Notes under the pieces: generated by a model
What the model was told of the DNA's origin: nothing
Databases searched by the model: none
The model's input: the letters and a program-made list of their open reading frames with translations, nothing else
Program-made: the position numbers and the translations under genes
Assembly (NCBI GenBank): GCA_051252135.1
Contig: JBPOGH010000001.1
Coordinates: forward strand, 64,001 to 128,000
Source: Verrucomicrobiaceae bacterium
Lineage (GTDB): Bacteria > Verrucomicrobiota > Verrucomicrobiia > Verrucomicrobiales > Akkermansiaceae
DNA length: 64,000 nt
Direction of reading: 5' to 3'
Shown here: positions 17,113-17,247 of the stretch, piece by piece
Layout of the letters: each line of letters begins with the position of its first letter
How positions within the stretch are numbered: position 1 is the stretch's first letter

Positions 17113-17148
17113 AAAAAGCCTGTCGGCTTCGGGTTAAGCGCGACAGGC
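17113..17148 (-). terminator. Attenuator terminator of thiC leader
   Basis: GCCUGUCG...CGACAGGC stem followed by UUUUU, between the aptamer and the thiC start. Confidence 0.85.
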
Positions 17149-17167
17149 GTGAGAAAGATTTTGGTCT

Positions 17168-17247
17168 GACTCCTGGTTCCGCAGAGCGGTTCCAGTGGTG
17201 AGGGTATGATCTCAGGATCTTCGTTTTGGCGAAGAAACACCCCTGTC
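17168..17247 (-). ncRNA. TPP (THI-box)-type riboswitch, variant P4/P5 arm
   Basis: Minus strand GACAGGGGUG-UUUCUUCG CCAAAA CGAAGAUC-CUGAGA-UCAUACCCU-CACCA-CUGG AA CCGC UCU GCGG AA CCAG-GAGUC directly upstream of thiC. Confidence 0.85.

Follow-up and report, generated by a model that had tools for sequence, protein, structure and literature searches.

The window analyzed here, a stretch of 64,000 nucleotides from the Verrucomicrobiaceae bacterium assembly GCA_051252135.1 (contig JBPOGH010000001.1, positions 64,001 to 128,000), carries on its minus strand the HMP-P synthase gene thiC, preceded by a structured leader. Read on that strand, the segment from 17247 to 17113 spans the first base of a P1 helix to the last U of an intrinsic terminator, which sits 23 nt upstream of thiC; the ATG of the gene is at 17089. 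Folding of a leader of 181 nt gave a z-score of -5.5, and none of 200 shuffled sequences was as stable. Downstream of thiC, on the other strand, lie a histidine kinase and an OmpR-type response regulator (12671–14943, plus strand). On the far side of the leader, a divergent open reading frame without a Pfam match (17276–17848, plus strand; 190 aa from a TTG, with an ATG near 17391) is followed by a nitroreductase-family gene (17831–18502, minus strand) and an LptD-like gene (18486–20831, minus strand). The only match in the window at an Rfam gathering threshold is a tRNA gene with a long variable arm (25595–25678, plus strand; 84 nt, 54.3 bits).

The leader was compared with its counterparts in other genomes. 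Two collections of 23 and 37 loci were merged and, after the removal of 24 duplicates and one odd copy, 35 unique leaders were kept, all from one marine Akkermansiaceae genus and not independent of each other. The consensus and structure of the canonical TPP riboswitch (RF00059) were taken from cmscan alignments of two canonical relatives. The features, in the order of transcription, are:

17245–17247, minus strand: P1 5′ strand GAC, with which the antiterminator strand also begins; identical in 35 of 35 leaders, canonical relatives also having GAC...GUC
17241–17244, minus strand: P2 5′ strand AGGG, with G17240 and U17239 after it; invariant in 35 of 35 leaders and in agreement with the RF00059 consensus columns
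17215–17238, minus strand: P3 hairpin with an outer G-C pair, a UU/UC internal loop, a 6-bp stem (17235–17230 with 17223–17218) and a 6-nt loop (17229–17224); supported by covariation
17209–17215, minus strand: J3/2 CUGAGAU, the bulge that binds the aminopyrimidine in TPP aptamers; without variation among the 35 leaders and equal to RF00059 CUGAGAu
17201–17207, minus strand: AUA and P2 3′ strand CCCU (17204–17201, pairing with AGGG at 17244–17241); ACCCU invariant, RF00059 consensus aaACCCu
17196–17200, minus strand: J2/4 CACCA, 5 nt, the canonical length; an identical junction occurs in canonical TPP aptamers, for example metagenome locus L175
17173–17195, minus strand: variable hairpin replacing P4-J4/5-P5-L5-J5/4; closing C-G pair invariant, next three pairs covarying
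17168–17172, minus strand: GA junction and P1 3′ strand GUC, invariant; canonical relatives likewise have GAGUC after P4
17149–17167, minus strand: linker with a hairpin of AGA, loop and UCU (17167–17156), then UUCUCAC; stems invariant, loop nearly so
17142–17151, minus strand: 3′ antiterminator strand, complementary at 9 of 10 positions to 17247–17238
17113–17148, minus strand: intrinsic terminator with an 8-bp outer stem (17148–17141 with 17125–17118), a 4-bp inner stem, a loop and a 5-U tail (17117–17113); present in the MFE structure of the full leader, at a site flagged by a terminator scan
15002–17089, minus strand: thiC (HMP-P synthase), 695 aa; PF01964 (5.8e-181) and PF13667 (1.8e-29)

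A first-pass annotation of this DNA had described a TPP-type aptamer with a canonical pyrimidine-sensing half that controls thiC, and our results agree with it: GGGGUG (17243–17238), the P3 hairpin, CUGAGA (17215–17210) and UACCC (17206–17202) are all in place, the junction is canonical, the element is found across the genus, and thiC follows the leader in all 35 cases. P2, P3, J3/2 CUGAGA and ACCC agree with the cmscan consensus in every leader, and P1 closes P2 and P4 in a three-way junction next to a thiamine gene. The blocks GAC-AGGGG-UG, CUGAGAU, ACCCU and GAGUC are invariant, whereas the first 90 residues of ThiC are only 77–92% identical. In the alignment, 97.3% of the cells of the proposed structure pair, compared with 91.5% after shuffling; the covariation score is 0.255 against 0.137 for shuffled alignments and was reached in none of 500 shuffles, and sliding the pairing partners lowers pairing to 29–52%. 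P3 carries compensatory two-sided changes at four pairs, and its loop differs in length and sequence among the leaders. P1, which is 3 bp long, P2, the small linker hairpin and the antiterminator never vary and hence give no covariation support either way.

TPP riboswitches are the most widespread class of riboswitches, and the way they grip TPP with two arms is a classic example of RNA-ligand recognition, in which specific bulge nucleotides and Mg2+ take part in holding the pyrophosphate. The model RF00059 (Rfam 15) gave no match in this genome, neither at its gathering threshold (54.3 bits), nor at E ≤ 10 within 16900–17500 (601 nt), nor at E ≤ 1 across the whole genome (96.6% complete), and it matched 0 of 25 and 0 of 16 genomes in two samples of the genus. 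Other Rfam 15 families met the leader only through chance matches to lncRNA and snoRNA models (E 4–8) and were set aside. Inspection of the P4 and P5 columns showed that everything inside P4 is missing: the pyrophosphate-sensor helix (P4 CCUg/uAGG, J4/5 AU, P5, L5 uUAAUa, J5/4 CG) was found in 0 of 35 arms, and the closing C-G pair is all that is retained of the P4 consensus. The absence of the canonical pyrophosphate-arm nucleotides that had been reported for the window alone, including the J4/5-J5/4 signature, is thus a property of all 35 leaders.

The arm that occupies this place in the window, CUGG-AA-CCGC-UCU-GCGG-AA-CCAG (17195–17173), is present as annotated. It had been taken for a selected two-stem structure with an AA/AA loop, and the alignment of thiC leaders divides this claim in two. 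The base of the arm is kept, its four pairs comprising an invariant closing C-G pair and three that show compensatory changes. The AA/AA loop and the CCGC-UCU-GCGG inner stem, by contrast, occur in 1 of 35 leaders, that of the window itself; beyond the basal pairs, length, loops and sequence drift, the whole arm measuring 16–28 nt and forming a plain hairpin of 16–17 nt in 20 leaders and assorted bulges and internal loops in the other 15. A motif, U-(A/C/U)-A-C, which resembles the L5 of canonical relatives, appears in 24 of the 35 interiors, but since the length of the arm is unconstrained and the leaders are related, we did not take it for a preserved dock between L5 and P3. The place of P4/P5 is held by a hairpin that has no conserved pocket nucleotides.

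According to the account in PMC4112796, the pyrimidine moiety of the ligand is bound by P2/J2-3/P3, and in the Escherichia coli thiM riboswitch P4/J4-5/P5 is needed for pyrophosphate recognition and for switching. With the P4/P5 helix reduced to an unconstrained hairpin, discrimination by phosphate has most likely been lost, and the leader would probably read thiamine, its phosphates and its pyrimidine precursors alike. Judging from sequence comparison, we think it fairly probable that the thiC leader is a lineage-specific descendant of the TPP riboswitch, an OFF switch on thiC predicted to read the aminopyrimidine part of its ligand without checking the pyrophosphate. By analogy, the most likely ligand would be the pool of thiamin, TMP and TPP, which, we infer, would be dominated in the cell by TPP. 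The first-pass annotation had offered altered specificity as an inference; loss of phosphate discrimination is what the anatomy naturally suggests, and it matches what the passage on P4-P5 variants in McCown et al. (2017, PMC5473149) says of them.

The same retained half could instead belong to a sensor devoted to compounds of the pyrimidine branch (HMP-P, HMP-PP or salvaged HMP), among which the first-pass annotation had named HMP and HMP-P, giving feedback from the product of thiC, with the plain helix sterically or electrostatically disfavoring the thiazole-pyrophosphate part of TPP. We regard this as unlikely, although several observations fit it. thiC is the sole controlled gene, here and in the relatives, with one riboswitch match per genome; all nucleotides of the aminopyrimidine pocket are kept while all those of the pyrophosphate arm are free; ThiD, ThiE, ThiG and ThiL are present, so that HMP-P and HMP-PP are real intermediates in the cell; and a natural HMP-PP riboswitch exists on a different scaffold, as outlined in PMC6478431. 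The computed evidence, however, does not separate HMP from thiamin compounds, an arm length of 16–28 nt speaks against a precisely shaped new pocket, and the sole published statement on such variants, a short one in PMC5473149, names thiamin and not HMP. For the seven thiamine-pathway families that were checked, variant genomes also have the same content as canonical ones. A difference was looked for between two variant genomes (G000 and G012) and three canonical ones (G044, G092 and G129), and none was seen: ThiE, ThiD, ThiG and ThiL occur in 5 of 5 genomes, TenA in 0 of 5 and ThiM in 1 of 5 (G092). We hold it rather improbable that a TPP scaffold cut down to its pyrimidine pocket has come to sense specifically the branch that ThiC feeds (HMP-P, HMP-PP, salvaged HMP). 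Were this so, thiamine-precursor sensing would have a second, structurally unrelated riboswitch solution, and the leader would be a clean natural case of ligand re-targeting through deletion of half a binding site.

An aptamer that remains TPP-selective might also grip the pyrophosphate anew, through Mg2+ bridges to the arm backbone or through the linker hairpin unique to this lineage. The linker (17167–17149) is invariant in the variant leaders and long and variable in canonical relatives, and its layout of 3 bp, a 2x2 loop, 3 bp and a 6-nt loop recalls P4-J4/5-P5-L5 in outline. In order, its parts are AGA, a loop of 6 nt, UCU, two variable bases and CUCAC, and its outer GAG/CUC pairing competes with P1. 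The 3′ side of its internal loop, unlike a ligand pocket, varies (UU, AG, UG, CU, CG); its outer stem shares a G with P1, which makes the two mutually exclusive; and the remnant in the sister genus is unrelated in sequence past GAGUCAGACC. We consider a new grip of this kind quite unlikely. The hairpin GAG-UC-AGA...UCU-UU-CUC was also tried explicitly as a relocated pyrophosphate arm in the four-way junction of an ON switch and was rejected, given the variable 3′ side of its loop, the competition with P1 and the destruction of P2 by the enclosing helix.

How the leader could control thiC is suggested by its alternative folds. A long-range helix between 17151–17142 and 17247–17238, the latter comprising the 5′ strands of P1 and P2 and the UG that follows, is the RNAalifold consensus. 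In 35 of 35 leaders this antiterminator is the MFE structure of a transcript cut at 17142, with a mean of -33.4 kcal/mol, compared with -20.3 kcal/mol when the fold of the same transcript is constrained to P1 and P2. It consumes two G's of P2, and in the same fold the UGAG of J3/2 pairs with CUCA; the pyrimidine pocket and the antiterminator are therefore mutually exclusive. At full length the terminator fold (mean -43.7 kcal/mol) and the forced antiterminator (-41.7 kcal/mol) lie close together in energy. The aptamer fold is about 13 kcal/mol weaker than the antiterminator by secondary-structure energy alone, a figure that leaves out ligand and tertiary terms, and on that figure the switch must be kinetic.

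These folds make it likely, as a model, that the thiC leader is an OFF switch acting by transcription termination. A ligand in the J3/2 pocket would let P2 and P1 hold the strand 17247–17238; the strand 17151–17142 would then be free to pair with 17125–17118, and the terminator would halt transcription before thiC. When no ligand is bound, 17151–17142 would invade P1 and P2, form the antiterminator and allow read-through into thiC. A terminator of the form CCUGUC...GACAGG followed by a U-run stands behind an ordinary P1 in 5 of 30 parsed canonical relatives, all of one sister genus, which indicates that the platform was inherited from a normal TPP OFF switch. The switch model leaves the invariant linker (17167–17149) unexplained; it may tune the kinetics of switching or have another role, and its hairpin could belong to a new element that contacts the ligand.

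The long-range helix admits the opposite polarity on paper. If 17247–17242 with 17147–17142 were the true P1 of a four-way-junction aptamer, the leader would be an ON switch whose ligand prevents the terminator, and the helix does enclose the whole aptamer and is both the consensus and the MFE structure of the truncated transcript. Yet it uses two G's of P2, and J3/2 then pairs with the P2 3′ strand, so that the pyrimidine pocket is destroyed; the same helix is found in canonical TPP relatives that have an ordinary P1 (CGAC/GUCG) after P4; and a thiamine-type ligand that turns thiC on would be metabolically senseless. We give this polarity hardly any credence.

Pairing within the terminator system also bears on whether a ligand is involved at all. 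The leader might be a decayed riboswitch without a ligand, working as a constitutive attenuator or one that depends on a protein or a condition, and conserved through its alternative pairings. The defining pocket is gone, RF00059 fails outright, and some of the conservation could be structural, given that the antiterminator fold offers CUCA as a pairing partner for the UGAG of J3/2. Against decay, J3/2, the unpaired G and U after P2 and the AUA before the P2 3′ strand are invariant in 35 of 35 leaders though compensation would be possible; the stems of P3 and the arm do change, unlike J3/2 and its neighbors; and the state persists in at least 35 species-level genomes. Decay is in our judgment very unlikely, and we return to the OFF switch that reads the aminopyrimidine part.

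No sigma-70-like promoter was found by a scan of 17000–17450. The divergent open reading frame reads away from the thiC leader, which means that the thiC promoter must lie at about 17250–17390. Six RNA runs showed small shares, and one contig from each of four of them, at 85% likeness, covers the leader, from 17107 to 17250 in three cases and from 17136 to 17250 in the fourth; these contigs come from a relative, are silent on ends, strand and level, and may reflect DNA carry-over.

The distribution of the variant was followed by several routes. With the leader as blastn query, matches were obtained in 22 of the 24 further genomes compared from its genus (73–88% identity) and in 0 of 16 genomes from other families of the order. 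A pattern scan with one genome per species returned 37 places, in records titled Akkermansiaceae, Verrucomicrobiales, Verrucomicrobiota or Verrucomicrobiia and one titled "Bacterium isolate", mostly MAGs. In all 35 unique leaders thiC starts 50–87 nt past the end of the aligned segment. A covariance model, R1, built from the alignment of the 35 leaders (A2), matched the genome of the window, 14 of the 15 remaining genomes of its genus and the one genome of a sister genus (1 of 1). It gave no match in 18 further genera of the family (0 of 134 genomes) or in a sample drawn from the order (0 of 150). RF00059 gave the mirror image within the family: 0 of 15 genomes of the genus, 0 of 1 of the sister genus and 119 of 134 elsewhere, with one match per genome; it was also found in 15 of 16 genomes from other families of the order. 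Among the 151 genomes of the family, variant and RF00059 matches are mutually exclusive, and no thiC was found in the three genomes of the genus from which the leader is absent. It follows that in a single lineage the variant took the place of the only canonical riboswitch on thiC. That it descended from a canonical copy at the same locus is seen in this exclusivity and in the terminator design shared with a sister genus.

A metagenome search was run with a pattern anchored only on J3/2-P2′-J2/4. Of at least 119 loci, 80 were considered: four repeated known sequences of the variant, about 40 were by eye canonical TPP aptamers with the same junction, and the rest were chance matches. Three AT-rich marine metagenome contigs (L143, L177 and L178) carry compact TPP-like aptamers with a shortened P4/P5 and AA at J5/4 in place of the consensus CG, another pocket variant in a different lineage. 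The sister-genus copy (L088/L070; genome G041, locus 1500–2584) has an intact-looking variant aptamer with GAU, not GAC, as the P1 5′ strand. Directly past GAGUCAGACC it gives way to unrelated A-rich DNA with an open reading frame of 264 aa on the opposite strand, which we take to be IS200/RayT-transposase-like. No thiC was found in G041, which is 72% complete, and with unrelated DNA past GAGUCAGACC this copy is uninformative as a second gene context.

A whole genus has swapped its sole TPP riboswitch for a version without the pyrophosphate pocket, and both the remaining half and the switching logic stay under strong selection. The leader is a compact natural test case of how much of an aptamer regulation needs, and of whether the vitamer pool or a pyrimidine precursor is read out. 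Annotation with Rfam silently misses this thiamine regulation in abundant marine bacteria, which matters when vitamin B1 metabolism is inferred from metagenomes. An alignment, structure and distribution of this kind are of practical value, no detailed description having been found in the literature searched. In that literature, with subscription journals mostly outside the search, we found no account of the Akkermansiaceae variant and no full paper on P4-P5 variants beyond the 2017 mention.

In comparison with canonical RF00059 riboswitches, the variant shares the thiC locus, P1 GAC/GUC, P2 AGGG/CCCU, the unpaired G and U after P2, the outer G-C pair of P3, J3/2 CUGAGAU, aaA-CCCU, the 5-nt J2/4, the closing C-G pair of P4 and the GA junction. 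It differs in having no J4/5, J5/4 or conserved L5, its arm being a free hairpin of 16–28 nt; in the base of P3, which is a U-rich internal loop where the consensus has a C-G pair; and in the linker to the terminator, which is short and invariant in the variant and long and variable in canonical relatives. With the canonical copies of one sister genus it has the terminator/antiterminator design in common.

The HMP-PP riboswitch (thiS motif; Atilho et al. 2019, PMC6478431), as far as its outline in that paper goes, is a small terminator-embedded aptamer that acts as an ON switch in the thiazole branch. It resembles the thiC leader in sensing a pyrimidine compound of the thiamine pathway and in using an intrinsic terminator. 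The thiC leader does not belong to it: it has no Rfam match, another architecture, a predicted OFF logic and a thiC context.

The closest known kind is that announced by McCown et al. (2017, RNA 23:995; PMC5473149), whose short passage on the subject describes bacterial TPP variants with mutated P4-P5 that bind thiamin, TMP and TPP alike and cites the underlying study as "Roth et al., in prep." Two readings are offered there, a pooled-vitamer read-out or a discrimination that is unneeded as TPP dominates, and the variants are said sometimes to share a genome with a canonical TPP riboswitch. The thiC leader has the structure that this passage calls for, a TPP scaffold with a disabled pyrophosphate core in a bacterium; its membership in that set is our assumption, as the set's sequences and gene contexts are not given in the passage. 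It departs from the variants as described there in that the whole inner arm is replaced and not point-mutated, and in that its genome keeps no canonical TPP riboswitch and the controlled gene is the biosynthetic thiC. The first-pass annotation had proposed a candidate riboswitch class of altered specificity; with a non-discriminating, P4-P5-mutated kind already announced in that 2017 passage, the class is not newly recognized. The Akkermansiaceae thiC leader is a real, selected and genus-wide derivative of the TPP riboswitch, which we place in this announced but barely described kind.
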